A stretch of DNA of 32,000 bases from an uncultured archaeon (GCA_964354495.1 CAYHAA010000010.1:60001-92000); one strand, 5' to 3'. Numbered from the stretch's first letter, positions 6,082 to 27,781 are shown. The notes: generated from the letters alone by a model not told the origin. Numbers and translations are program-made.

Positions 6082-7251
6082 CTACTTTGGGAAGAACTCC
6101 TTGAACACTTCACGCTGAATGAGGAATCGAAGAATCTCGGCTGTTCCACCGCCGATCGTCATCAGACGCGCGTCTCTCATGAAGCGTTCAACAGGATAGT
6201 CAGTCGTGTAGCCCATACCACCTAGAATTTGGAGCGCATCATTAGTGACTTGAACAGCAGCCTCGGTTGTATAGAGCTTTGCAATTGAGGCAGCCTTAGT
6301 AATCTTCTGACCCCGGTCGTACATCCTTGCAGCTGTGAGCGTGAGAGCACGGCCTGCCTCCAGTTTCATTGCCATGTCTGCGATCTTGAAACTTACTCCC
6401 TCAAACTCATTGATAGGCCGGCCAAATTGGTGGCGCTCAGTTGAGTACTTGACAGCAATCTCATAGGGTGTTCTGCCATAGCCAATAGCCTCTCCGGCAA
6501 TCGCAGTCCTCTCAGAGTCCAGCTCGTCCATCAGAATATGGAATCCCTGACCAGGTTCCCCGAGTATCATATTACCTGGAACTCGAACATCCTCTAGTTT
6601 CAACCACGAAACCCGAGCAGACTTCATTCCGAGCAAGTCATGGTCTTTGACAACGGTGAATCCCTCACTCTTGGTGTCGACGATGAAAGCAGACATGCCA
6701 TCCTTAGCCTTCACAGCGGGGTCAGTGATAGCAAACGCACACATGTAGTCGGCTTGGCTTCCATTTGTGATGAAGCGCTTTTCGCCATTGAGGATCCAGC
6801 CATCACCGTCCCTCTTCGCTCGGGTCTTCATTCCTGCAGTATCAGACCCCACATCAGGTTCAGTGATACCAATGCATCCAATCTTATCTCCTGCAACAAC
6901 AGGCCTGAGATACTTCCTCTTCTGTTCAGGCGTTCCAAACCTTTCCACAGGCATGCCATAGAGAGTTGTAGAGGCCATGCGTGCCATGTCCAGGCCGGCA
7001 TTTGTGGCTGAGATCTCTTCAGCAACGATAATCTCATACGACAGGCCACGTTTTGTCCCACCTACTGATTTGTCATGGTGTACTCCCATGTAACCCGCCT
7101 TGCCAATTTTCCTCAGCAGTTCCCTTGGATAGGGGCCCTTGTCAATCTCATCCGCAATAGGAGCAATCTCCCTATCACAGAAAGCGCGGACTTCTCTCCG
7201 AAACTCGACCTCATCATCGGTCCAAAGTGCATTCGATAGGTGCTCAACCAT
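6082..7251 (-). CDS. Acyl-CoA dehydrogenase, IVD/LCAD-type catalytic Glu placement
   Basis: IGITEPDVGSD, WILNGEKRFITNG, ERHQFGRPI, ALQILGGMGY, RDARLMTIGGGTAEI. The ORF track starts at GTG 7284; ATG at 7251 is the likelier start. Confidence 0.93.
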   Translation of the reverse strand: MVEHLSNALWTDDEVEFRREVRAFCDREIAPIADEIDKGPYPRELLRKIGKAGYMGVHHDKSVGGTKRGLSYEIIVAEEISATNAGLDMARMASTTLYGMPVERFGTPEQKRKYLRPVVAGDKIGCIGITEPDVGSDTAGMKTRAKRDGDGWILNGEKRFITNGSQADYMCAFAITDPAVKAKDGMSAFIVDTKSEGFTVVKDHDLLGMKSARVSWLKLEDVRVPGNMILGEPGQGFHILMDELDSERTAIAGEAIGYGRTPYEIAVKYSTERHQFGRPINEFEGVSFKIADMAMKLEAGRALTLTAARMYDRGQKITKAASIAKLYTTEAAVQVTNDALQILGGMGYTTDYPVERFMRDARLMTIGGGTAEILRFLIQREVFKEFFPK

Positions 7252-7321
7252 TCCTGAAACCCGTGCCTTCTGCCGAGAACTCACTTAAATCACTAACTGG
7301 AAGCGCCGATCAGCATGTCAA

Positions 7322-7645
7322 TCATGAGAGTAGCCTGAAACGAAGTAGATTCGATCTGTCAGGAGCGACTTCGACAGGATCTCCAATCTCAGGCTTTGAA
7401 TCATCTTTGCTGCCAGCTAAGCATAATACGACTGCGCCTTGGTCCAGCTCCACCAGAGCCATCGTCAACGGGGGAGTGAATCCTTCGGGAGGCATCTCTA
7501 GAGTTGTGTGGCTGAGAATGGTGCCCTCGCCGTTGATCTTCTGTTTGACCATCTCTCCTGCGGCCTTTCCGCAATATGGACAGATGTCACGTGGCGGAAC
7601 GATTGTTCGAGAACAGCGCTTGCAATGAGAGGCTTGAATCTTCAT
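7322..7645 (-). CDS. DUF35 family Zn-ribbon/OB-fold protein (thiolase partner)
   Basis: CKRC...PPRDICPYC Zn ribbon followed by GTILSHT...ALVELDQG OB-fold pattern; 107 aa. Confidence 0.88.
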   Translation of the reverse strand: MKIQASHCKRCSRTIVPPRDICPYCGKAAGEMVKQKINGEGTILSHTTLEMPPEGFTPPLTMALVELDQGAVVLCLAGSKDDSKPEIGDPVEVAPDRSNLLRFRLLS

Positions 7646-7723: not shown

Positions 7724-10700
7724 TCATTCAGGTTCCATAAATGATTCTAGGAGGCTAATCAGTTCCTTCTTCGAGAGACGTTTCAGTTCGTCAGGGCTGA
7801 CAGTAGCTTTGAAATCTGAAGGAAGAAGCTCGACTAGTGTCTTCTTGTCCAGTTTTGATAGCTCCTTAATGCCGAGTGGAACATCTGAAACGCCAGCTTC
7901 CGCAGAGCGGGTTATTGGTTCAGGAAGCAGCTCCTTGGAAGGAGTATATGAGTCAAGAAGTGACTGAGCCTCCTTTCGAGACATCTTTTCGAGATCCTCT
8001 TTGGCTATAGCATCTCGAATCTCAGGAGGTAGTCTATCCAGGATTTCCTGCTTAGTCAGTGGTTTCTCCACTTCTATCGCAGGCATTGATTCAGGTAATG
8101 TCGTAGTCGCGGGAGCTGTTAATGCCTCAATGGTCTCCATCTCAACGTCTTCTGCCAACAGAGGTTCTTTCCTGACAGGTTCGGTCGGTTGGACCTCCTC
8201 AGCAACATGCAGCTCATCAGCAGACGTGCTAGTTGTCTCTATTTCCTCGATAGTCGGGGCCTCAGCCGCCCGGGGTACTTCAAGAGGTTCATGCACCTCT
8301 GAAACAGGGAGTTCGGCAGGCGGATAAGTGTCTGGCTCAGGTTCAGCTGGTTCAGTGCTAGTTTCTTCAATATGTGAATCAGCAGGAGCAGTGGCCGTTT
8401 CATCATATATTCCGAAGTCGGAGGGCTCAATATCGGTGATTCCTGCGCTGACTGCACCGTGTCTTCTGCGGGAAGCAATGAGTGCAACACCAATCAAACC
8501 GACACCCACACCGCCGCCAATCAGTAGGAGGGTCATCGTATCTGGGGCAAATCCCGGAACAGCAACCCATTCAATCTCTACGCTCAAATTGGCTGAATCG
8601 AGAGCGGAGATTCCATACAGGCTGTCTGATATGCTCTCAACAGAGAAAGTGTAGTTGCCTGCAGTGTTCCTAGTGACGCTAACGCTCCAATAGGCACCTG
8701 CTGAGTTGTATGTCATTGCATTGGTTGCACCAGTCAGAGATACCGAGCCACTAGTAAACGGACTCTCATCAAACTCGTATACGAGAGTGACTCGTATCTC
8801 TGTTGCAACTCCGACATCTTGGGAGAATGACGTCGCAGTGATTGAGGTCACCTGAACTCTGTCCCAGATGATCACCAGATCAGCAGCTGATTGTACGTAA
8901 CTGCTGATTTCACCAAGTGATGCAGAGATGATGCTGAATGAATAACTTCCTACGGTACTCTGAGTGACTGATGCCACATAGACACCACTGGATGGGATAC
9001 AAGTGATGTCGCCTGTCATCACGGCCACAACACCATTTGGTACGGTTACACCTGCGTTCTCAAGTCTTGCACTCCATTGGACCAAAGCCGTATCACCCAT
9101 ACCCAATCTGCTATGGTCAACAGATACTGAGTAGAATTCAATTCGGTCCCAATAGACAGTGACTTCATTCGAATCCATATTGAATTCAGTTATACCGTAG
9201 AGTGCGGCATTGCAGAGAGTAAGAAGGTCAAACGATACAGCTTGGTAGGTAGCCTCGGTGACATAGGTTTCCCATAGGCCGGACCCGACATGAGTCAGTG
9301 CATGACCTTCAATCGCAAATGTGCCGGAAGTGACAGACAACGCATCGTACTCATACTGTAGACCGACTATGACTCTCACATTGTCGCCGGGGTCATGGTA
9401 CAGCTCGTCAGCTGTGATTGAAGTGACTAGTACTCGGTCCCAAATGCAGTAGACAACATCATTGGAGAGGATGGCGGTGATTCCGAATGAATCATCCGCT
9501 GCAGAGAGGACAGTGTAGCCTTGTATCTGCGGCGTAGCGTACGAGAAGTAAGTGTTGTTCAGCGCGAGAGCTCCATCAAATGTAGCACCATCATATGCAT
9601 AGATGGCGCTCACGTAGATCCCCGTTGCGTTGGCTCCAACGTTGACTCGCATATCAGTCGGATTGGTCATGGTGATGATCAGAGCATCCCAGATTGCCTG
9701 CACATCAGTTGTAGAATCAGACCATTCTGTCAGCCCATGTATTGACTCTACAACTGAAACAACAGTGAATCCTGCAGATATCGGAACAGATGAGGTCTCC
9801 TGCCATCGCCAGTACGAGCCACCGGCGTTCCAGATCAAGGTCCTTGATCCATTGAGCTGGATCAGCAATCCACTCTGAATCTCAGTTCCGTTGTATTCGT
9901 ATCGTGCTCTCCACCATACTTCACAGTAGGAATTGATGTTGATTCGCAAGTCGACGACTCCAGCCAGATAGATCTCAATCCTGTCAGTGATGAAGGTGTC
10001 AGTGGGGCTGGTCGAGAAGTACAAGTCAGTACTCCCTGAGCCAGCACCCTCAGCCACAGTCTTGATGGTGTAGGTGTTCAACCTGATGGAGGCAGAGGAT
10101 CCAATGCTGGAGATACTGAAACTGCCAGCAGCCAGGTCACCATTCCAACTGCCTGCAACATCATGGATAATCCAGACATCAGTCTCATTTGCGAGAGGGC
10201 TAAGACTGGAGCCATAGTATGTGATGGACCCGGACACGACAAGGTCGGTGGTATTCACATCACCATGGTCGTCAGACAATGATGGTGTAACTGAATAATC
10301 AAGACGTGTTTCCACATCCCAGTTCGTCTCGTAGGAGTCTGAATCTGAATCAGTGCCATCGAAGACAGACTGCTCCACATCAGAATCAGCAGTGTGTTCA
10401 TGATCCCAACCTATTTTCAGATACCAGGTGATACTCAGCGTATTCCCAGCTCCGACTGCATCGGACATGCTGCCGATGACTACAACTGCGCCACCCACTT
10501 CGACAGAGAATGTATCGGTCGAATATGTGTATCGCACTCTCCAATATAGAGTAACTCGATCGTCAGAGTAGAGCGATAACTCGACATAGCTAATGTCTGC
10601 AAAGCCATCCGGGTCACTGACAGATGTAATGATGATGTAGTATCGATACCGAGCATATAGGCGGTCCGTATCATCTCCGTTAGTGAGTGTTGGAGCAGAA

Positions 10701-13700
10701 TCATTCATTGGAGGATTGTTGGGTTCAGAGGACCAGGTAACCAGCCAAGCGTTCGTAGAGAATGCTGTTATACTATAGTTCGATTCGAATGAGATACTAC
10801 GCGTTGTGTAGCTGTAGGAGATGTTGTACCCAACATCAACGAAGAGACTGACATTAGCACCAATGAATGAGTGCCACCATGTTGAGTTTCTCTGTACGAC
10901 TATCTGATATGATGTACAGGCGGCGTCATCATAATCAAAGATGACTGTAAGCGAGAAATTAGCTTGGACACCGTTCAAGGGAGTGGAATCATCAACTCCA
11001 ATCGTAATGACAAGCTGATCCCATATGCAATATGTCGCATCATTGGCTGAGATCGCTCTGATTCCATGAGTTCCACCACTTGCTGAGTCCACAGTGTACC
11101 ACTGAATCTGAGCTGTGCCGTAAGTGAACTGAGTGTTGTTAAGAATCAAAACACCGTCGAAAACAGAGCCATCATAGTCATGCACAGCACTAGTAACGAT
11201 ACCTGACGCATTAGTGTTGACATTGATACGTTGATCTGTGGAGTCACTGATGGTTATCGTAAGCGAGTCCCAGATACAATATGTTGCATCATTGGCTGAG
11301 ATCGCTGTGATACCATGAGTTCCACCACTCGCTGATAGGACTGTATACCACTGAATCTGTGCTGTTGAATACGTGAATTGTGTATTATTGAGAGTGAGAG
11401 ATCCATCAAAAGCCGACCCATCATAGTTGTAGACGGCGGCCACTATAATTCCAGAGGCATTTGTATTGATGTCAATGTGCTGGTCAAGTGGTTCTGTGAT
11501 GACTATCCTCAACGAGTCCCAGATACAGTAGGTCACATCGTTGTTGGAGATTGCAGTGATTCCAAAGGCACCACCACTCGCAGAACCCAGTGTGTACCAC
11601 TGGATCTGAGCTGTGCCATATGAGAACTGACTGTTGTTTAAGGTCAGAACACCATCGAAAACAGAGCCATCATAGTCGTAGATGGCGCTCACGATGATTC
11701 CTGTTGCATTCGCATTGATGTTTATTCGTTGGTCCGAAGGGTCTGTCAGTGATACAGTGAGTGAATCCCAGATGCAATAGGTCACATCATTCGCAGATAC
11801 TGCTGTAATCCCGTAGGTTCCTTCACTAACGCCCTGCACAGTGTACCACTGAATCTGAGCTGTGCTATAAGCAAACAGTGTGTTGTTCAGCGTAAGGATT
11901 CCATCGAATTCAGCGCCATCGTAGTCATAGACCGCTGTGATGACAATTCCAGATGCGTTTGTATTGATGTTTATTCGCTGGTCCAAGGGATCTGTAATCG
12001 AAATTGTCAGCGAGTCCCAGATGCAGTAGGTCACATCATTTGTCGAGATTGCTGTAATCCCATGAGTTCCACCTGAGACTGACTGTACTGTGTAAGCCTG
12101 CCTCTGTGAAATGCTGTAGGTAAATTGCGTGTTGTTGAGGGTTAGAGTGCCATCGAACGCAGCTCCATCATAATCGTAGGTTGCAGTCAAAATGATTCCC
12201 GTTGCATTCGCATTGACATTGATTCGCTGATCCAAGGGGGCGGTGAGGACAATAGTCAGTGAGTCCCAGATGCAGTAGGTCACATCATTTGTCGAGATTG
12301 CCGTAATCCCATGAGTCCCACCTGAAACTGATTGCACGGTGTAGCCCTGTTTCTGGGCTATGGCATATGCGAATTGAGTATTATTGAGGGTGAATGTGCC
12401 GTCGAATGCAGCACCATCATAGTCGTATATTACTGTTACCACGACGGCGGATGCATTGCTGCTTATATTGATTCGTTGATCAGTAGGGTCTGTAATGGCG
12501 ATAGTAAGTGAGTCCCAAATACAGTAGGTAACATCATTTGCTGAGATTGCTGTGATTCCATAAGTTCCCCCACTCACACCCTGAACAGTGTACCACTGAA
12601 TCTGAGCAGTAGCATAGACGAATTGCGTGTTGTTGAGTATGAGCATTCCGTCAAACGGTGCAGAGTCATAGTCATGGACTGCAGAAACAACTATTCCTGA
12701 AGCATTCGTATTGATGTTGATGCGCCGGTCCAGAGGGTCAGTAATCGTGATTGTAAGCGAGTCCCAGATGCAATAAGACACATCGTTACTTGAGATAGTA
12801 GTGATGCCATAGACCCCGCCGCTCGCACTCTGGACACTATACCACTGAATTTGAACACTGCTGTAGATGAATAGAGTGTTGTTCAGTGTCAATATACCAT
12901 CGAAAGTAGAGTCGTCATACTCATAGACAGCAGAAACGATTATTCCGGATGCGTTCGTATTGATATTGATACGTTGGTCGATGGGGTCAGTCATTATGAT
13001 TCTCAAAGAGTCCCAGATGCACCAAGTCATGTCGTTGGCCGATATTGCTGTGATTCCATAGGCCCCGCCACTCACGCTCTGAACAGTGTACCACTGGATT
13101 TGAGCAAGGGCATAGCTGAATTGAGTGTTATTGAGGCCGACTGTACCATCGAAGGCAGAACCATCATAGTCGTAGAATGCAGTCACGACTATCCCGGACG
13201 CATTCGTATTGACGTTGATACGCTGGTCAGAAGGATCAGTGACTACAACCGTGAGTGAGTCCCAAATACAATATGCTGCTTCATCAATGGAGACTGCTGT
13301 TATACCGAAGGCGCCACCACTCACTGAGCTCACCCGGTACCATTGAATCTGAGCCGTGGCGTAGCTGAATTGCGTGTTGTTCAGAGAGAGGACTCCATCA
13401 AATGCTGAGCCATCGTAATCATAGATGGCACTGATGACAATGCCAGAGGCGTTGGTGTTGATGTTAATTCGCTGATCTGACGGATCAGTGATTGTGATTG
13501 TGAGCGAGTCCCATATGCAATATGTGACGTCGTTGCTGGAAATCAGTGTAATTCCATAGGTATCACCTGAAGCCGACTGCACAGTGTAACCTTGCCTCTG
13601 AGCTACAGCGTACACGAATTGGGTGCTGTTAATGGTCAACGCACCATCGTACGTGGTGCCATCATAGTCGTATACCGCAGTAACTACAATACCTGACGCA

Positions 13701-19187: not shown

Positions 19188-19712
19188 TCACACAATGAGA
19201 ACCAGGAGTTCCGTCGGTGTCACCATGGTCCCCACCTTGACATTCACTTCCTTCACGGTGCCGGAGGTATCTGCCTTCAGTTCATTGAACATCTTCATCG
19301 CTTCAAGTATGCAGACTGTCTGACCGCTCTTGACAGTGTCACCCACTTTCACACGGACTTCAGTAATCTTGCCAGGCATGGGGGGATAGATGCCACCAGC
19401 CACTCTTGGGCCTGCCTGGGAGGTGCCAGGAGCCTTTTTCTCAGCTTCTTGCTTTCTGACACGTTCCCACTCAATCTCTCGTTCCTGGCCATTTATCTCA
19501 AGACTCATGGTCTTCCCTGTTCGTTTCACGATTCTCACGGGATAGTCAGTGGTGGTATCATTTACAATCCATGAACCATCATCAGCAAGAGTCGGTTTCA
19601 TTGTGAAACTCTGGTCAGCAACCTTCACAACAAGCAAGCCGCCCTCATCGAGCATCTTAACTTCAACAACGAAAGGCTTCTCATTGAGAGTGACCCTGTA
19701 TTCCGGACTCAT
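19188..19712 (-). CDS. Biotin carboxyl carrier protein with N-terminal extension
   Basis: PPMPGKI...ILEAMKMFNEL biotinylation motif in the C-terminal domain. The start overlaps the pycB stop (TAATG). Confidence 0.92.
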   Translation of the reverse strand: MSPEYRVTLNEKPFVVEVKMLDEGGLLVVKVADQSFTMKPTLADDGSWIVNDTTTDYPVRIVKRTGKTMSLEINGQEREIEWERVRKQEAEKKAPGTSQAGPRVAGGIYPPMPGKITEVRVKVGDTVKSGQTVCILEAMKMFNELKADTSGTVKEVNVKVGTMVTPTELLVLIV

Positions 19713-21298
19713 TATACGCCCTCCTGGCTGCGTCCTCTCATCATATCCTTCCTACCAGCAGAGCCCCATGGTGTCGTGGACTGCTCCCACTTTCCAGCTC
19801 CATATTGCACTGTTCGTGCAGTAACGAGACCACTTCGACCCATGTCTGTCCATGCATCGCCTCGAGTGACTGCTGTTTCCGGCCCGCTTGGAGTAATCCC
19901 ATTCATATGAAGAATGGCCGCAGTGATTGCTACCTCCAATTCAGGTGTCATTTGACCTGCGACTTTTTTCCGAGCACGACGTTTCAAGAAGTCCAGAGCA
20001 TACTGCGGGAATAGGGCATAGGATATTTCATCACGTGGCAGATGTGGTACGTCTTTGAGGGCTTCCCGTGCTGCTGGAAGTTCTGGCTCAAGAAGATCAG
20101 CAGGCCTGCAATCAAGAGGCTTTTCATTGCCAATCGCCATCTCCCTGACTGCAGCATCAATCTCAGCTGGGGGTCTTCCGTAATAACCGCGGATGTACTG
20201 TTTTACCTCAGTTGGAATCGTGCTGTATCTCTTTCCGGTCACAACATTGAGTGTTGCCTGAGTTCCGACAATCTGACTTGATGGTGTCACAAGGGGGGGA
20301 TAACCAAGTTCTGCTCGCACACGCGGGACCTCTGCAAGCACCTCATCGTACTTATCCAATGCACCCTGTTCACGGAGCTGATTGTCAAGGTTAGATAGCA
20401 TCCCTCCAGGAATCTGAAACTCGAGGACCTGTGGATTGACTCCCTGAAGACTGCCCTCGAACTGTGCGTACTTCCTGCGAATTCTACGGAAGTAGTTGGC
20501 AATCTCAGAGAGTTGGGTGATATTGAGACCTGTATCACGAGGAGTACCTTTGAGTGCCTCGACAATAGATTCAGTGGCAGGTTGTGATGTTGCCATTGAC
20601 AGCGCAGATATCGCGCAGTCTACTACGTCCACCCCTGCTTCTGCTGCCTTGACATATGCCATTGCAGCCATCCCACTGGTGTAGTGAGAGTGGAGCTGGA
20701 CAGGAAGGTCTACCTCGTCTTTGATTCCTGCTACTAGGTCATACGCAGCCGTGGGAGAAATGAGTCCTGCCATGTCCTTGATACAGATTGAGTCAGCCTC
20801 CTTTTCATAGAGCTCCTTTGCCATCTGGACAAACTTCTCATTTGTGTGAAAGGGGCTCAGGGTGTAACTGATGGCTGCTTGAACATGACCACCCTCACGC
20901 TTCACGAATCTCATTGCAGCCTCCATATTCCGAACATCATTCAGTGCATCAAAAATCCTGAAGATATCGATTCCAACTCGGACTGCCTCCACAACGAAGG
21001 CTTCCAGAACATCGTCCGCATACATATGATACCCAACGATATTACTTCCCCTCAACAACATCTGAAATGGCGTCTTGGGCATTGTTTCTTTGAGTAGTTC
21101 GACACGCTCCCAAGGGTCCTCGTCAAGAAAACGCATCATAGAGTCGAAGGTAGCCCCACCCCACATCTCAAGCGAATGGTACCCGACTTTATCAATCTTC
21201 TCACATATGGGAAGCATGTCCTCTGTTCGCATTCGCGTAGCAATAAGTGATTGATGTGCGTCTCTCAGTGTCGTATCAGTTATCAGAAGCTTCATCAT
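19712..21298 (-). CDS. pycB: Pyruvate/oxaloacetate carboxyltransferase (PycB / OadA / transcarboxylase 5S-like), with no fused biotinyl domain
   Basis: [60 protein letters not shown]. The symbol indicates the family. Confidence 0.9.
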   Translation of the reverse strand: MMKLLITDTTLRDAHQSLIATRMRTEDMLPICEKIDKVGYHSLEMWGGATFDSMMRFLDEDPWERVELLKETMPKTPFQMLLRGSNIVGYHMYADDVLEAFVVEAVRVGIDIFRIFDALNDVRNMEAAMRFVKREGGHVQAAISYTLSPFHTNEKFVQMAKELYEKEADSICIKDMAGLISPTAAYDLVAGIKDEVDLPVQLHSHYTSGMAAMAYVKAAEAGVDVVDCAISALSMATSQPATESIVEALKGTPRDTGLNITQLSEIANYFRRIRRKYAQFEGSLQGVNPQVLEFQIPGGMLSNLDNQLREQGALDKYDEVLAEVPRVRAELGYPPLVTPSSQIVGTQATLNVVTGKRYSTIPTEVKQYIRGYYGRPPAEIDAAVREMAIGNEKPLDCRPADLLEPELPAAREALKDVPHLPRDEISYALFPQYALDFLKRRARKKVAGQMTPELEVAITAAILHMNGITPSGPETAVTRGDAWTDMGRSGLVTARTVQYGAGKWEQSTTPWGSAGRKDMMRGRSQEGV

Positions 21299-21326
21299 CT
21301 CTAACCAGCATAGCGCATGTTAGATA

Positions 21327-21346
21327 GGTATTTAGTCGTTCTGTTA
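21327..21346 (-). promoter_or_regulatory. Putative BRE/TATA promoter of pycB
   Basis: Minus strand TAACAGAACGACTAAATACC, ending 29 nt upstream of the ATG; 19/20 identical to the motif at 24510-24529, which has the same spacing to its ATG. Confidence 0.7.
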
Positions 21347-21550
21347 GTACTCTCTCTTATTCTTTTGATACACATCTGATTGCCAGCGGCGAACGAGAAA
21401 CTCGAAATTCCCTCCAGATTCGCGGTTTCATACTCGACTGACTCATCGAAGTTCTCTATGCTATCCAGCAAGAGAGGATTATGCCTTATTCTAGTAGGGT
21501 GGATTTACGACGAGTCGGATATTATTCCACGCTTCTGTCAGGTGCAAGTC

Positions 21551-21727
21551 ATGCTTCCAACATGGACCTCTCGGACCTGCCATGTATGTGGTGAGAGAGG
21601 GGTGTGGGCGGAGGGCGTGACCTCAACTGATGAGCGGCGTGGGAGTGATTACTTCCATTGTTCAATGTGCGGTGAGCACTTCCGTGCTGATACGAATGCC
21701 ACACGGAGTGTTATGCATGTTCAATAG
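21551..21727 (+). CDS. Small Zn-ribbon protein (58 aa)
   Basis: MLPTWTSRTCHVCGERG...YFHCSMCGEHF, with CxxC x2. ATG at 21551 follows AGGTG; the 21380 start in the ORF track is probably too long. Confidence 0.65.
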   Translation: MLPTWTSRTCHVCGERGVWAEGVTSTDERRGSDYFHCSMCGEHFRADTNATRSVMHVQ

Positions 21728-21800
21728 TCTGAGCAAGTTGCGGCCCCTAGGCGTACAGCAGGACGTCCGAGTTTTGCAGCTGAAAATGGACTGTTCGCAA

Positions 21801-22388
21801 TTAGGCTCTTCGGCGGTATATTATATAAAGTACTGGTAGAATCACAGCCACAATGGTCACCGAGATTATGATTGAGATTTGAAGCGGAATGTCGGCTGTG
21901 GTGTTTGTTGAGCCCTGCCTGCAGAATGATATTCGATGCAAGCTGGATGTATTCCAGTTGTTGAGGCTATCATTTGCATAGAACATGATATCCCAGATAA
22001 CTAAAGAGTTTGCTCCAATAATCGTGAAATTCAGAGGCCAAGCTACAAAGTCGTCTGGATCACTTGTAAAAGCATCTCGACTCATAGAAACATTGTTCCA
22101 GTTGCTACTCGAATTGTTATTGTAACTTCCAATAACATTACTCACTCCATCGGGGTCTGTTACTCCAACTCTGAGTTCAAGGGTCAAGGTCACAGGTTCG
22201 GTGCTAGGAACAAGATCCATGAACACCCATGGAGTGAGTTTGAACGAAGGACCTGAAGACTGACATACCTGAAACGAGGATGACAGAGATGACTGATTGC
22301 TCACAGCTGCCCCTCCTGCATTTGGCATCAGTGATGTCAGTGCAACTAGAATCAAAACAGCGTATCTAAAAGTCATTATCATCTTCAT
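21801..22388 (-). CDS. Small type I membrane protein with one Ig-like extracellular domain
   Basis: Signal peptide, VTDPDGVSNV...FYANDSLNNWN beta-sandwich-like segment with many sequons, and C-terminal TM IIISVTIVAVILPVLYII followed by YRRRA. Confidence 0.8.
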   Translation of the reverse strand: MKMIMTFRYAVLILVALTSLMPNAGGAAVSNQSSLSSSFQVCQSSGPSFKLTPWVFMDLVPSTEPVTLTLELRVGVTDPDGVSNVIGSYNNNSSSNWNNVSMSRDAFTSDPDDFVAWPLNFTIIGANSLVIWDIMFYANDSLNNWNTSSLHRISFCRQGSTNTTADIPLQISIIISVTIVAVILPVLYIIYRRRA

Positions 22389-22476
22389 GTTTCTCCCTTA
22401 ATGTACGTCCTAAGCTATCTCTACACCTTTCATTATCATTTCTATATACGAGTTCTTTTTTCTTGCCTCCAATTTG

Positions 22477-24117
22477 TCACCAATAGCTCCGAGCATATGC
22501 CAAATACTGGTCCCAACTGCTACAATGATAATAATGATATGAGAGGTCACGCTCCGATCCATATATATCAGGTACGCCACCTGAACTTTCGGCCATTCCT
22601 TCAACATGACCATACTCATGCATTAAAATCCATTGTCTATAATTCTGAAGATAATACGAGGCTTCATCGCCTATTGCAAATCCAAAGCCCCATATTCCAA
22701 ATCCCCAAATGTTGCTAGGATCTATGTAATGAGCAAATAAACCATATACCCATCTGGTCTGTCCGATATGATTGAAATACATATCGCGATAGTTGGATTC
22801 GTACTCGTCCCCGTTAATGTCATATTCAAAAGGAACGCTCGAACTCTGAACAAATGTCACTCTTCTGTAGTCATGGACTATCCAATATGCTTGGAGATAA
22901 TCAAAGATAGAAACAGGTTGCTGATGATTATAGCTGGTTCCTCCATGAACTCCAACCATCCAATCAACTTCGACGTTCCTATAATAGTAATTGATCCACC
23001 AGTGCGTCAAAGCCTTTGGATTCGTCCCGTAATTGCCATAGTACAGAACAAACTTGATTTCATGCATACCAGGTGTTGAATAACTTGGCAATTGAATATG
23101 ATAGGTACCAGGAGCAGTAAGTGTGCTGTGAAGCTGACCGTCTACATAGACGTATAAGTATCTGTAAAACGGATCATGAACATTGACGCATTGTATGTCT
23201 AGGTATGTGCTAGGACCCATCGGTGTGCGGTATCTGAGTTCCGAATAGAGCGCGTTTTGAAAGTTCTCTTCTGTCGTATCATAAGGTTGACCCGAAGAAT
23301 CAAAGAGGTGGTAATATCTGAGCTGCCATCCTTTATCGGATATACCTCCATTGTAGATTTCAAGTGTTATTGTCAACCATCCAGTGTAGATTAATGATAT
23401 ATCACCTTCCCAGTAGGGTTGTGTGCTATAGATTACTGTATTTAGTATCTGAACATATCCCACATACACCCGAAAGTATCTAGAGTAGGTATCTAGATCT
23501 CTCTCCACTCTTATGTGTGCCTTCATCCCGGACTGAATATATGCTTGATATGAGATCCTTGCATATGTGGACTTTGGAAACCAGTGCCCCTCCATTGCAG
23601 GAGTCACAGGTACTGCGCGCGTATTTCTATCATGAGGACCGAATTCCGAGCCCCAAGTATGTCCAGTGAAGTAACCACTGACAAGTGGAGTTGACTCTTT
23701 TTCTGATTCTATTATTATTTCTTGAGATACATTCATTGCTTCAGGTATACAATCAGCGGAAACAAATGGAGGCATTTGATTAATTCTCTCAATCTCTGGA
23801 GAGATTGAAGCATTCATCATTTGAACTTCCTCAAGTGTTGGGATTTTTGTTCCGAAATCCGTTTCTAGATAATTCAGGGTCGTAGGATCTCTCTCAGAGG
23901 TAGTTACCATATTGTTCCAAGGGATATCTGCATTCTGCGTAGTCATGGGACTTTCGGAAAACGCAGCTATTGCCAAAGCTCCCGGAATCTGATTGATAGT
24001 GCATACTAGCACCACAATCACAACAATCCTGATTGCAGAAAGAAAACGATCCTTTTTGAAACTCCATTTACCAGTCTTGAAATTCATACCACATACTTCC
24101 TCAATCAATCGTTCCAT
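22477..24117 (-). CDS. Membrane-anchored/secreted putative zinc metallopeptidase (HExxH)
   Basis: N-terminal hydrophobic helix, two Tyr-rich beta domains, and C-terminal ILMHEYGHVEGM. The start may be ATG 24087 after GAGGAAG. Confidence 0.7.
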   Translation of the reverse strand: MERLIEEVCGMNFKTGKWSFKKDRFLSAIRIVVIVVLVCTINQIPGALAIAAFSESPMTTQNADIPWNNMVTTSERDPTTLNYLETDFGTKIPTLEEVQMMNASISPEIERINQMPPFVSADCIPEAMNVSQEIIIESEKESTPLVSGYFTGHTWGSEFGPHDRNTRAVPVTPAMEGHWFPKSTYARISYQAYIQSGMKAHIRVERDLDTYSRYFRVYVGYVQILNTVIYSTQPYWEGDISLIYTGWLTITLEIYNGGISDKGWQLRYYHLFDSSGQPYDTTEENFQNALYSELRYRTPMGPSTYLDIQCVNVHDPFYRYLYVYVDGQLHSTLTAPGTYHIQLPSYSTPGMHEIKFVLYYGNYGTNPKALTHWWINYYYRNVEVDWMVGVHGGTSYNHQQPVSIFDYLQAYWIVHDYRRVTFVQSSSVPFEYDINGDEYESNYRDMYFNHIGQTRWVYGLFAHYIDPSNIWGFGIWGFGFAIGDEASYYLQNYRQWILMHEYGHVEGMAESSGGVPDIYGSERDLSYHYYHCSSWDQYLAYARSYW

Positions 24118-24217
24118 ACGCGGTAATCAGTTATTAGCCTTCGGTTTGTTGAAATGATCCGAAAATCATATCACCGGACTCACGTGATTGAGGACTCTTT
24201 CCAGTCCCATTTGATGC

Positions 24218-24481
24218 AACGATATTAGACCCTCTCAGGAGCATCTAGAACTTGGTCCTTGGCATTGCATCCTTGAGCAGCTCCACGCGCTCCCAAGGGT
24301 CTTCATCCAAGAAACGCATCATACTGTCAAAGGTCGCACCGCCCCACATCTCAAGGGAATGGTACCCAACATTGTCAATCTTCTCGCATATGGGTAGCAT
24401 GTCTTCAGTTCGCATTCGTGTGGCAATGAGAGACTGATGTGCGTCTCGCAATGTTGTATCGGTAATCAGAAGCTTTGCCAT
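24218..24481 (-). pseudogene. pycB: Truncated 5' fragment of pycB with an internal TAG
   Basis: 72/78 residues identical to the intact PycB N-terminus. Codon 79 is TAG where the intact gene has CAG. Homology continues in frame (MLLRGSNIV) to codon 88 at 24218 and then stops. Confidence 0.9.
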
Positions 24482-24509
24482 TGCTGACCAAATCAGTAGG
24501 TAGTTGATG

Positions 24510-24529
24510 GGTATTTAGTCATTCTGTTA
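24510..24529 (-). promoter_or_regulatory. Second copy of the pycB promoter motif
   Basis: Minus strand TAACAGAATGACTAAATACC, ending 29 nt upstream of the ATG at 24481. Confidence 0.7.
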
Positions 24530-24678
24530 TTGCGCTGCACATTCCATTCGTCCTCAGTCAGCGCCTCGATGTCTCATCCATTGACCGCGAAGGCAGATTA
24601 TAGCCAGAGAATAAGACTTGGAGGCAGCCACCAGACTCTCCTCTCAGGACTGGTGAAGCGTAGCCCAGATGTGGTGAG

Positions 24679-25221
24679 TCACTTACTTTGTTTCTTGACC
24701 CACCTCTCAATGATATCTGCGGCTACATCGTCAACAGCGGTCATTCTTACCACAACTCCGGTGACACTGTCAGTGACAAAGATGTTGTAGTAGTGTCTGC
24801 GACTGCTCTTTTGAGCCCATACGGTCTTCAAATACTGCTCAGGCGCCAACCGCTTCAGATTCGACCTAAGTATCTCTTTCTTTATGGACTTGCCCTGTAC
24901 TTCAATCAGTCGCTCCGAGGTGAGATAGTACATGGTCCGTTTCATCTGGACAAACAAGTAGATCACATAGAGAAGAAGTACAAAGAATGCAATCACCGCG
25001 ATTATGTCGAAGATAACAACGATGAGTAGAAGGCCGGCAGGTGAACCTTGAGCAAGATTGCCCAATACTGCTGCAACCACGACTAGAAGCAACATCGGGA
25101 AACAGCCATTGCGCATGAGAATCATGATGCCAATTCCTGCTCTCTGACTCCACTCGATGGTCTCGCCATCATTCAGCCCTTGAACTGGTGAGTCGGGTGT
25201 TGCGACATCGTTACGCGGCAT
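24679..25221 (-). CDS. Membrane protein with two TM helices and a bacterial PH-like C-terminal domain
   Basis: ETIEWSQR, two hydrophobic helices, then YYLTSERLIEVQG, a pattern typical of bPH-domain proteins. Confidence 0.7.
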   Translation of the reverse strand: MPRNDVATPDSPVQGLNDGETIEWSQRAGIGIMILMRNGCFPMLLLVVVAAVLGNLAQGSPAGLLLIVVIFDIIAVIAFFVLLLYVIYLFVQMKRTMYYLTSERLIEVQGKSIKKEILRSNLKRLAPEQYLKTVWAQKSSRRHYYNIFVTDSVTGVVVRMTAVDDVAADIIERWVKKQSK

Positions 25222-25433
25222 ACTACGATTCCCATGTCACAGCATCTAGGCGGGTATTTGAAGATTATCACGGAGAATAGCATGTGAGAGGTGGTGATCA
25301 TGGCACAGGCATGAGTCTTAAGATGATCTCCGGAACGAGCTATCAGAGAAACCAACAAAGCATTTAACGGACCAAGTCAAGGAGGCAGGAATAGGACAAC
25401 TCCGCAGAGAATGACGGACGAAAGGCGAGGATC

Positions 25434-27652: not shown

Positions 27653-27781
27653 CGTGAGGGAATCAGTGCAGTAGATGTAGACCAAGCAGGGCGACTGGTC
27701 TGCGATGAGGGAAAAGATTCAGCCCAAGTATCAGGTAGAATATGCCAAGATACTATCACAAAACAAGAGTGGACGGTTTCT

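Follow-up and report, generated by a model that had tools for sequence, protein, structure and literature searches.

In the 32,000-nt stretch of archaeal DNA analyzed here (the window), which comes from a Thorarchaeota (Asgard) archaeon, the pycB locus is present as a filled allele: in this lineage 3,202 nt have taken the place of 19 nt of pycB (codons 89-95). The ancestral order was upstream genes, then the promoter, then pycB. What is native at the site is a stub made up of the original promoter and codons 1-88, and what is foreign is a 2,862-nt cargo, a second promoter and a second set of codons 1-95 with ~79% identity to its native counterpart. We think, with modest confidence, that the allele probably arose by a site-specific cut that was repaired on one side from a foreign, cut-resistant allele and on the other by a non-homologous join, and that it was afterwards spread between strains by recombination.

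Results

Two copies of the pycB 5' end

All genes of the pycB region lie on the minus strand. As the original prediction had it, there are two direct pycB copies 3,183 bp apart: BLAST recovered a repeat of 274 nt (21034-21307 versus 24217-24490, 79% identical, E = 2e-68) and a second segment (21323-21353 versus 24506-24536) with a copy spacing of 3183. Over codons 1-88 the stub and the working copy share 42 identical codons, while 39 differ by synonymous changes only and seven by non-synonymous changes including the stop, which is close to the 34 synonymous and six non-synonymous differences counted earlier over 78 codons. The resulting dN/dS of 0.04 and dS of ~1.9 indicate that the two copies evolved apart, each as a functional gene in its own lineage, and so uphold the earlier view that both had been under purifying selection and are not a decayed self-duplication. 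That the genome is metagenome-assembled is the sole point in favor of an artefact or local origin, i.e., an assembly chimera or an in-place duplication followed by divergence, and we give this next to no credence: two independent per-run Logan contigs (13.8 and 12.5 kb, 99.9% identity) cover the whole structure, contigs from two more runs bridge each of the junctions, the divergence figures place the copies in separate lineages, and empty-site alleles (below) identify the native one.

The stub (24217..24481, minus strand) is a pseudogene that retains native pycB codons 1-88. Its identity with P0004 and with the empty-site alleles L068 and L105 (for these two over nt 1-266) is 90-96%, whereas the working copy matches it at 79%. 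As predicted, it breaks off after codon 88 and carries a CAG-to-TAG change at codon 79 (24245-24247); this stop is recent, since contigs of three other runs (X1, X2 and X7) have CAG there. The stub promoter region (24506..24536, minus strand) carries, ~30 nt ahead of the ATG, the conserved core of the pycB promoter (24511-24526), and the same 16-mer recurs at 21328-21343 ahead of the working gene, these being its only two occurrences in the window (0 in 100 shuffles). With a single mismatch in 20 nt and an equal distance from the ATG, the two promoter copies confirm the described 19/20 identity and equal spacing; since almost all pycB genes examined in the class have the motif conserved upstream, its near identity reflects function and not recency. 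Taken together with the 5'UTR, the stub promoter is of a type that differs from that of the empty-site alleles. Upstream of the stub, ORF180 (24679..25221, minus strand) belongs to an earlier extra block that is absent from empty allele L105 and from L070, a variant filled allele, and present in run X2.

The working gene begins with a foreign promoter and 5'UTR (21299..21353, minus strand; core at 21328-21343), and its upstream type is common to L070, not to the empty alleles. Foreign codons 1-95 (21014..21298, minus strand), which cover the inferred cut site, are fused in frame to the native body of pycB, codons 96-528 (19712..21013, minus strand), a carboxyltransferase with HMGL-like and PYC_OADA domains that has the homologous crossover at its 5' edge. 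The foreign codons are 70-83% identical to the empty alleles, a protein comparison agreeing, and along the working copy identity to these alleles is 47% over nt 267-285 and then 92-95% from nt 286.

Empty sites at this position, whose existence the original prediction had raised, were found in other samples. In Logan contigs from two runs, X2 and X7, 21013 and 24216 are separated by just 19 other letters, which vary at third codon positions only; the same layout is seen in protein P0004 and in JGI contigs L068 and L105. Each such allele consists of a stub-type start, the 19 nt absent from this genome and the same gene body, and because the start is of the stub type, the stub represents the native promoter and codons 1-88. 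The empty-site alleles therefore bear out the proposal that the gene was restored by DNA of a related lineage, which supplied a pycB promoter and 5' end of its own, with the native start left behind as a stub. Of the proposed comparison of donor, recipient and crossover point, the native copy and the switch (nt 285/286) were resolved; a search for the donor lineage did not find it, the best-matching 5' ends being 76-85% identical at the DNA level.

The points of exchange

At the left junction (24214..24216) native sequence ends at CDS nt 266-268 by DNA-level alignment, and the joint is non-homologous. Any microhomology there may be as short as 0-2 nt, this being the overlap obtained with one or another empty allele as the parent. 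The stub is thus native to nt 266-268 and the working gene foreign to nt 285, which puts the exchange points 17-19 nt apart, a distance that fits one break with little resection and not a single crossover. The single-crossover integration originally proposed is not borne out, as 19 native bases are absent, and one reciprocal crossover with a circle cannot replace 19 nt by 3,202 nt. The right topology (stub, cargo, intact gene) would also result if a circle bearing the promoter and 5' end had integrated by a Campbell-type single crossover and the stub had later been shortened by a deletion; pop-in by one homology arm is familiar from archaeal genetics, and deletions in a dead stub are neutral. 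However, this route needs a second event, whose deletion end must have fallen by chance within 19 nt of the crossover and must also have hit the same 5-7 nt window in other genera, and no intermediate in which native codons 89-95 stand in the stub and are followed by donor sequence was present among the alleles recovered. We regard it as very improbable.

A shared break position and linked LAGLIDADG genes in relatives

A survey of 87 Thorarchaeia genomes turned up pycB stubs in five genera, at least six of them independent, whose ends fall at nt 264-270 (codons 88-90): at nt 266-268 in G000, nt 268 in G050, G063A and G066, nt 269 in G092, nt 270 in G011 and nt 264-268 in G063C. A staggered cut of 4 nt would give this range of ends, and the sequence beyond the break is unrelated from stub to stub. 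Other stubs end elsewhere (G003 at codon 39, G060 at ~codon 70, G063B at codon 31), and G063 has three stubs in a row. In four genera (G050, G011, G092 and G068) a LAGLIDADG gene lies directly upstream of the pycB ATG on the same strand, with 34 to ~200 nt between the two ORFs. These pycB-linked genes are 48-54% identical to each other, whereas all other matches in the class are ≤39% identical and located elsewhere. A hot-spot stub occurs in three of the four genomes with the linked gene and in three of the 83 without it, an association (~7e-4, hypergeometric) that is indicative only, as related genomes are not independent. The individual cases differ: the entire insert between stub and pycB is the LAGLIDADG gene alone in G092; G068 has the gene and no stub; and in G011 the stub comes from one pycB clade, with the working gene being of the other clade to ~nt 400-540 and of the stub's clade from there on.

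The linked protein of these relatives has two LAGLIDADG motifs in which both catalytic aspartates (D153 and D269) are invariant. A paralogue passes the threshold of Pfam PF14528 (3.8e-9), and the pycB-linked genes fall below it (E = 0.005-0.03). A structural model of the protein (pLDDT 84) gave LAGLIDADG proteins for all of its top 50 Foldseek hits, e.g., I-SceI, PI-SceI and I-DmoI (TM 0.65). WhiA was among the fold hits, and LAGLIDADG folds can, as in WhiA, also be non-cutting regulators. Neither the insert in the window nor L070 contains a LAGLIDADG gene or a relic of one, so for the window allele the nuclease link, and with it the candidate endonuclease, is inferred by analogy with the other genera. 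This genome does hold three LAGLIDADG paralogues (29-35% identical) on other contigs, and a diversified family of free-standing LAGLIDADG endonucleases with HTH arrays occurs in 32 of the 87 Thorarchaeia genomes, often in several copies per genome.

The 5-7-nt hot spot in five genera and the linked LAGLIDADG gene in four together point to a nuclease-triggered, homing-like process and not to a passive landing site; the housekeeping 5' end had first been described as a landing site. We also weighed homology-facilitated illegitimate recombination, in which linear foreign DNA anchored in pycB is closed by a chance illegitimate joint with no dedicated nuclease, as has been put forward for bacterial orphan arrays of effector and Rhs genes (PMC5361080). 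It would suit an allele that has no endonuclease gene, has one homologous end and one non-homologous joint, and has lost 19 nt of recipient DNA; here the right switch (nt 285/286) indeed falls within homologous pycB and the left joint leads into unrelated sequence. Since it leaves unexplained why at least six joints in five genera fall at nt 264-270 of a 1.6-kb gene, and why a LAGLIDADG gene stands beside half of them, we hold it to be an unlikely, if the least unlikely, alternative to the nuclease-triggered process.

Cargo genes and the search for a recombinase

The foreign block (block X, 21354..24215, 2,862 nt) has a GC content of 40-43% against 48-50% in the flanks and is skipped by the empty form. 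Cargo gene 1 (22477..24117, minus strand) encodes 546 aa with an N-terminal membrane anchor, tandem beta-sandwich domains and a C-terminal HExGH motif, whose residues H500, E501, G503 and H504 are nearly invariant in 15 homologs. It had no Pfam or NCBIfam match, and Foldseek found CBM-like sandwiches only for its model (pLDDT 66); an Atlas features search returned zincins at 0.81, a lead toward a putative secreted zincin. Cargo gene 2 (21801..22388, minus strand) encodes 195 aa with a signal peptide, an ectodomain rich in N-x-S/T and a C-terminal membrane helix. The two cargo genes travel together: relatives L051, L063 and L064 also have them side by side, at other loci. A third feature is a TnpB relic on the plus strand (21503..21727; Pfam PF07282, E = 2.6e-7) comprising the C-terminal zinc-ribbon end only, in that just residues ~42-115 of the ORF match this genome's full TnpB genes. 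Counted upstream from the pycB ATG, it occupies nt 205-430, the position of the LAGLIDADG gene in relatives. We rejected an IS200/IS605 or IS607 transposon, as no complete TnpB or TnpA is present and the ~75 aa TnpB C-terminus sits inside the insert, not at its borders.

There is no recombinase domain in the insert, and the genome, which is 97.7% complete, gave no match to a tyrosine recombinase (PF00589), a Y1 transposase or Cas1. The earlier statement that no integrase is encoded consequently stands, and extends to tyrosine recombinases genome-wide, with the correction that the insert does hold the TnpB relic. As a separate observation, swapped gene blocks are abundant in this genome despite its having no detectable tyrosine integrase.

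An integrase-borne element was likewise rejected, given an insert without a recombinase and exchange points offset by 19 nt. Broader than this would be site-specific integration by an unknown recombinase with its core at codons 88-90, the recombinase having been lost or acting in trans and the element carrying the replacement promoter and 5' end. A precise, shared stub boundary with variable adjoining sequence is what such an enzyme might leave, an 11-nt stretch immediately ahead of the break is identical in both copies (in G092 the last 69 nt are), and two small serine recombinases are encoded on other contigs of the genome. Yet these look like IS607 partners of TnpB, PF00589 matches are missing here but present in all 14 control genomes, and no insert examined has a recombinase gene. 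Moreover, the foreign tract runs 19 nt past the supposed core in the window and ~130-270 nt past it in G011, and because the empty site has 19 nt that the filled allele is missing, excision could not restore it. We consider this explanation improbable.

Spread of the filled allele

The window differs from L070 by 17% in the 5' part of the stub, by 4.7% close to the joint and by 2.3% within the cargo; at the opposite side, divergence steps from ~25% to ~5% at nt 285-300. Block X is 99.2-100% identical among runs, while the flanks of the same runs differ by 2-9%. Spread of the filled allele by recombination is visible both in the divergence gradients and in the identity of the cargo across diverged flanks. 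L070 has the left joint found in the window but native-type coding sequence from about the ATG, from which it follows that the history of the locus was multi-step; the order of the steps is only partly recoverable.

Discussion

In the cut-and-repair scheme we favor, a double-strand break would have been made at codons 89-90, most likely by a free-standing homing endonuclease of the LAGLIDADG type with specificity for pycB, similar to those of four other genera. The right-hand end would then have been repaired by homologous copying from a foreign allele without the cut site, which would carry the foreign tract ~19 nt beyond the break; the donor flank is indeed co-converted across the inferred cut site, with foreign sequence reaching nt 285, ~17-19 nt past the break. 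The left-hand end, to which the hypervariable upstream region would have offered no homology, would have been joined non-homologously, trapping the cargo and leaving the stub. The finished allele could then spread between strains by ordinary homologous recombination with the stub and gene body as arms; the endonuclease gene itself is absent from the allele seen in the window.

The pycB locus suggests, by analogy, a homing-type event that mirrors two known systems. The first is that of the fungal mitochondrial mORFs in atp6 of Allomyces macrogynus and in atp6, atp9, cox2 and nad3 of Glomus, where a LAGLIDADG gene travels with a foreign replacement gene end and the displaced native end is kept as a duplicate; this duplicate is 91-98% identical to close relatives and the inserted end 64-81%, with changes mostly synonymous (PMC3630166). 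The figures for the native stub (90-96% to relatives' alleles) and the foreign end (79%) are alike. However, our case concerns an archaeal chromosome, with the 5' end and promoter replaced in place of the 3' end; the relatives' endonuclease gene is separate and upstream, where that of the mORFs is fused in frame; and the insert carries unrelated cargo genes, the window allele having lost, or never had, the endonuclease gene. The second system is the intronless homing of T4-like phages by free-standing seg and mob genes, in which an intergenic endonuclease gene cuts a nearby conserved gene in genomes without the endonuclease gene, and repair copies that gene and the donor flank, removing the cut site (PMC2988022, PMC2790892). 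Both flanks are homologous there, which gives clean conversion and no stub; at pycB a hypervariable upstream flank goes with a non-homologous join on the left, and exchange would be between cells of different species and not by co-infection.

Two further comparisons are less close. Orphan arrays of T6SS effector-immunity and Rhs genes, together with homology-facilitated illegitimate recombination (PMC5361080, PMC3240628), resemble the pycB locus in having one homologous anchor, one illegitimate joint and displaced gene parts that are kept, with repeated events building arrays, as in the three stubs of G063. They differ in being bacterial and not from an Asgard archaeon, and in that their joints are not reported at a fixed position or with a locus-linked nuclease.

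Integrative elements that rebuild the gene they enter include phage 21 and e14 at icd and SXT at prfC, which supply a diverged replacement end (for SXT also a promoter) so that the target gene stays functional, and which have an integrase, an identical att core and precise excision. The pycB insert similarly supplies a diverged replacement end and promoter and keeps the gene intact, but it does so without an integrase, with exchange points offset by 19 nt and with no excision that could restore the empty site.

To our knowledge, very little is known about gene exchange in Asgard archaea, the closest known relatives of eukaryotes. The pycB locus is an unusually complete record of such exchange: empty and filled alleles occur within one species group, the break points are exact, the stop codon of the stub is dated, mosaic intermediates are present, one site has been used independently in five genera, and there is a candidate nuclease. 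The shared break spot, with a gene for a putative DNA-cutting enzyme at the locus in several relatives, suggests how these archaea capture genes without integrases. More tentatively, it is possible that each LAGLIDADG/HTH-array endonuclease is aimed at a different conserved gene end and that, through repair from foreign DNA with one homologous and one non-homologous end, these enzymes jointly provide an integrase-free route of gene capture that builds flexible islands. If the nuclease link is true, homing endonucleases would be more than selfish passengers of introns, inteins and phages, and would count as a main driver by which a cellular chromosome captures accessory genes.

A duplicated pycB start flanking two cargo genes

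The genes of this region are read from the minus strand. In that direction, a promoter-like motif (24511-24526) was followed by a 78-codon ORF matching the start of pycB (24481-24245), a 546-aa ORF (cargo gene 1, 24117-22477), a 195-aa ORF (cargo gene 2, 22388-21801), the second copy of the promoter motif (21328-21343), and the full gene for a 528-aa pycB/oadA-type carboxyltransferase (21298-19712), after which came a separate biotin carrier and then a thiolase, both also on the minus strand. A short ORF with a TnpB zinc-ribbon end (21380-21727) lay on the plus strand. As originally predicted, the promoter and 5' end of pycB were present as two direct copies (79% identical over 274 nt, 3183 nt apart), and the 16-nt promoter core had exactly two occurrences in the window, compared to none in shuffled sequences. 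We refer to the upstream promoter and codons 1-88 as the stub, and to the full-length gene as the working gene. The divergence between the two copies was also mostly synonymous, as had been predicted: the 88 codons comprised 42 identical, 39 synonymous, and 7 residue-changing positions (one being a TAG at codon 79), with a dN/dS of 0.04 and a dS of ~1.9. The GC content of the insert was 40-43%, relative to 48-50% in its surroundings. Judging by the names attached to pycB homologs, the organism is a Thorarchaeota (Asgard) archaeon.

An assembly chimera had been raised as a possible source of this arrangement. Per-run assemblies in Logan yielded two contigs (13.8 and 12.5 kb) that matched the structure at 99.9% identity, from the upstream gene through the stub, cargo, pycB, carrier, and thiolase to the next gene, and each junction was bridged by contigs from sequencing runs X1 and X2; the assembly of the locus is sound.

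The product of cargo gene 1 was membrane-anchored, with tandem beta-sandwich domains; an HExGH motif close to its C-terminus was nearly invariant, which we regard only as a lead toward a peptidase. An assignment as a zincin was rejected: there was no match in Pfam or NCBIfam, a fold search returned only CBM-like beta-sandwiches with low TM-scores, and the zincin score in Atlas (0.81) was below the level that counts. The cargo gene 2 product carried a signal peptide and a C-terminal helix and was rich in N-x-S/T sites. The closest homologs to cargo gene 1 (77% and 72%) were at other loci, not adjoining pycB. Since the two genes were also found together elsewhere in relatives, e.g., after ftsZ in contig L063 (77% DNA identity), the pair constitutes a movable two-gene module.

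The stub is the native start of pycB

The empty sites that the original prediction had proposed to look for were found. In one contig from run X2 and two from run X7, positions 21013 and 24216 were separated by just 19 letters of different sequence, which existed in three versions differing at third codon positions only. The empty-site allele thus ran from a stub-type start through seven codons absent from the window genome (AYRQYSD) into the body of the working gene. Its protein form, P0004, differed from the stub at 2 of 88 residues, Q79 apart, and from the working copy at 4 of the 7 residues 89-95 and at a single position in residues 96-200. In its DNA form (JGI contigs L068 and L105), nt 1-266 were 90-96% identical to the stub versus 70-83% to the working copy, while the working copy was matched at 47% in nt 267-285 and, from nt 286 onward, at 92-95%. 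As the empty-site alleles combine a stub-type start with the working-gene body, the stub is the native pycB start, and the cargo, the second promoter, and working-gene codons 1-95 are incoming. Codon 79 was CAG in runs X1, X2, and X7, and therefore the TAG arose recently in a dead fragment and is private to the window genome.

We found no donor of the foreign 5' end, the nearest sampled pycB 5' ends being 76-85% identical in DNA. Protein P0008 carried the amino-acid signature of the foreign 5' end (ETMPKTPF...GYH.Y), and the upstream genes on its contig were different. Separately, the differences between P0004 and the window protein were mostly in residues 401-528, and the 3' half of pycB (19552-20555) showed ~9% divergence between strains (runs X1 and X2), compared to 2-5% for the upstream flank, and pycB may contain a second recombination tract here.

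Geometry of the event

Relative to the empty site, 19 native nt were swapped for 3,202 nt (24215-21014). When a circle integrates into a chromosome by one reciprocal exchange, the result is a pair of hybrid copies with the same switch point and no loss of sequence. The single-crossover integration originally proposed did not hold up, because the native sequence of the stub extends to nt 266-268, the foreign part of the working gene extends to nt 285, and 19 nt are lost. A single crossover followed by a deletion is an unlikely alternative. The data fit a homologous exchange on the right (nt 285/286) combined with a non-homologous joint on the left, 17-19 nt apart, and a break with little resection would leave such a pair of exchange points. 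Repeat elements shared by the junctions were considered and rejected: the 99 nt past the left joint had no second copy in the genome, and in a genome search the right end of the insert matched TnpB 3' ends only.

A further, also unlikely, alternative is that a site-specific recombinase of an unknown kind made the window allele. The window's own genome (97.7% complete) had no match to the tyrosine recombinase family PF00589, not even of Xer type, while all 14 of 14 control genomes did, and it had no match to a Y1 transposase or Cas1. Two small serine recombinases were present in it, and a full-length TnpB gene adjoined at least one of them in an IS607-like arrangement.

Recurrent stubs and a hot spot in pycB

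With residues 1-130 of the native protein as the query against 87 Thorarchaeia genomes, extra N-terminal pycB fragments were identified in the window's own genome (G000) and in G003, G011, G050, G060, G066, and G092, as well as three times on a single contig of G063. In DNA comparisons, homology broke off at nt 266-268 of the coding sequence in the G000 stub, at nt 268 in those of G050, G066 (a decayed copy), and G063A, at nt 269 in G092, at nt 270 in G011, and at nt 264-268 in G063C (G063A and G063C being two of the three G063 stubs), with unrelated sequence past the break in every case. Codons 88-90, out of 528, thus hold at least six independent joints from five genera; the remaining stubs ended elsewhere, at codons 31, 39, and ~70. 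Plain illegitimate recombination is another, less likely alternative for the origin of the window allele, and it would supply a non-homologous joint such as the left one; chance joints do not explain the clustering at nt 264-270.

G011 repeats the whole pattern of the window: its stub belonged to one pycB clade, and its working gene to the other clade up to ~nt 400-540 and then to that of the stub. In G063, contig L115 (G063:C30) carried pycB 5' stubs in a row at 267-467, 6583-6675, and 11220-11492, two of the three ending at the hot spot, with unrelated genes between them including one for a TPR/STAND-like protein; this is an array from repeated events. An older scar of the same kind was present in JGI contig L062, where a decayed pycB fragment (9005-9088, codons ~51-82) lay 1 kb upstream of an intact pycB, flanked by a metallophosphatase gene and a PNP_UDP_1 gene. 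In G050 (contig L114), the stub (1873-2073) and working copy (7213-7413) were 100% identical from -97 to +101 and ~80% identical thereafter, and in G092 the two copies were identical over the 69 nt that precede the break; in these genomes the two copies seem to have undergone gene conversion with each other after insertion.

For the G003 event the crossover could not be placed, and G013 was rejected as its donor, with 98% identity only from -49 to +100. Contig L111, a more distant contig with a truncated copy and a Shine-Dalgarno-like leader, was set aside as another organism. An otherwise intact pycB in G018 (contig L008, G018:C47) had one in-frame TAG where its clade relatives have Trp; this TAG may mark a pseudogene, be recoded, or stem from a sequencing error.

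A candidate LAGLIDADG endonuclease

A Pfam scan of the inserts of other genomes gave weak LAGLIDADG_3 matches to two insert proteins, both encoded directly upstream of the working pycB (G050 and G011) and 48% identical to each other over 342 residues. Class-wide, the four best matches were in G050, G068, G011, and G092 (49-54% identity, G050 itself aside), and all four genes were on the same strand as pycB and directly upstream of its ATG, with 34 to ~200 nt between ORFs; other matches in the class were at most 39% identical and all at other places. The insert between stub and pycB in G092 consisted of nothing but this gene. The pycB-linked proteins had two LAGLIDADG motifs, with both Asp residues invariant, and a paralog cleared the Pfam threshold (E = 3.8e-9). 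A PDB sequence search gave nothing useful; a fold search with an AlphaFold model (pLDDT 84) did give matches, the top 50 all being LAGLIDADG proteins, including I-SceI, PI-SceI, and I-DmoI (TM 0.65). LAGLIDADG-related folds can sometimes be non-cutting regulators.

Hot-spot stubs were present in three of the four genomes with a pycB-linked LAGLIDADG gene, G068 having the gene and no stub, versus 3 of 83 genomes without one. LAGLIDADG enzymes cut to leave 4-nt 3' overhangs, and variable trimming of such an end would spread joints over nt 266-270, matching the observed range. Only recombinants whose copied tract removes the recognition site would survive, which would explain the 19 foreign nt past the break in the window and the longer tract in G011.

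The window's pycB allele contained neither a LAGLIDADG gene nor a relic of one, and the LAGLIDADG genes of its genome were distant paralogs only (C4:6999-7958, C33:9243-10217, and C3:123760-124758), 29-35% identical to the pycB-linked type and away from pycB. By analogy with the other genera, we lean slightly toward a nuclease step at the window locus too. The TnpB relic of the window occupies the place of the endonuclease gene in relatives, and it is possible that this gene was lost from the window allele through IS insertion and deletion. TnpB-guided homing was rejected, the relic being inside the insert and neither placed nor oriented at either junction.

The LAGLIDADG family was found in 32 of the 87 Thorarchaeia genomes, often in several copies per genome. 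The three paralogs of the window genome were within long ORFs (605-899 aa), at least one with N-terminal HTH-like matches, and no intein domains were detected in these ORFs.

A mosaic locus and the spread of the cargo

The region upstream of pycB was different in nearly every species of the genus. The empty allele L105 had an aminotransferase gene and a 223-aa gene, then 210 nt, and then the promoter; the spacing of the 223-aa gene from the promoter (~210 nt) was shared by L070, a variant filled allele, and ORF180 and the stub's own promoter/5'UTR type (24537-25433) were missing from both. Given the L105 layout, 24537-25433 therefore looks like a further, older inserted block in the window lineage, with its right edge near the stub ATG.

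L070 had the same stub-to-cargo joint as the window, and the first 342 nt of its cargo were 96-98% identical. Its cargo gene 1 was shortened to 82 codons, its cargo gene 2 allele was divergent (58% aa), the TnpB relic was absent, and its upstream region was donor-type, with native-type coding sequence from about the ATG. The P0005 contig had a layout as in L070, equated from gene sizes only. Divergence between L070 and the window fell from 33% in the stub promoter through 17% (stub nt 1-117) and 4.7% (nt 118-266) to 2.3% in the cargo, and on the right side it stepped from ~25% to ~5% at nt 285-300. The order of steps between L070 and the window allele can be reconstructed only in part.

The cargo of runs X1, X2, and X5 was 99.2-100% identical to that of the window, while the flanks differed by 2-9%, and the cargo is therefore younger than the strains carrying it. 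Its spread needs no more than ordinary homologous recombination in the stub and in the gene body. Another strain-variable insertion point lies at 27664-27709, the gap between the aminotransferase gene and a conserved 155-aa gene, where 44 nt were swapped for 1,395 other letters in one X2 contig and contigs from X1 and X5 also ended at 27664.

Relation to known systems

The closest match to the pycB locus is the mORF of fungal mitochondria, where the incoming LAGLIDADG gene brings along a foreign end that replaces that of the host gene, whose native end stays behind (PMC3630166). Also close are the intronless homing of T4-like phages (PMC2988022, PMC2790892) and homology-facilitated illegitimate recombination, which has been proposed for T6SS and Rhs orphan arrays (PMC5361080). 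New here are the host, which is the chromosome of an Asgard archaeon, the part replaced, which is the promoter and 5' end, the trapping of unrelated cargo, and a population-level record with empty, filled, and mosaic alleles.
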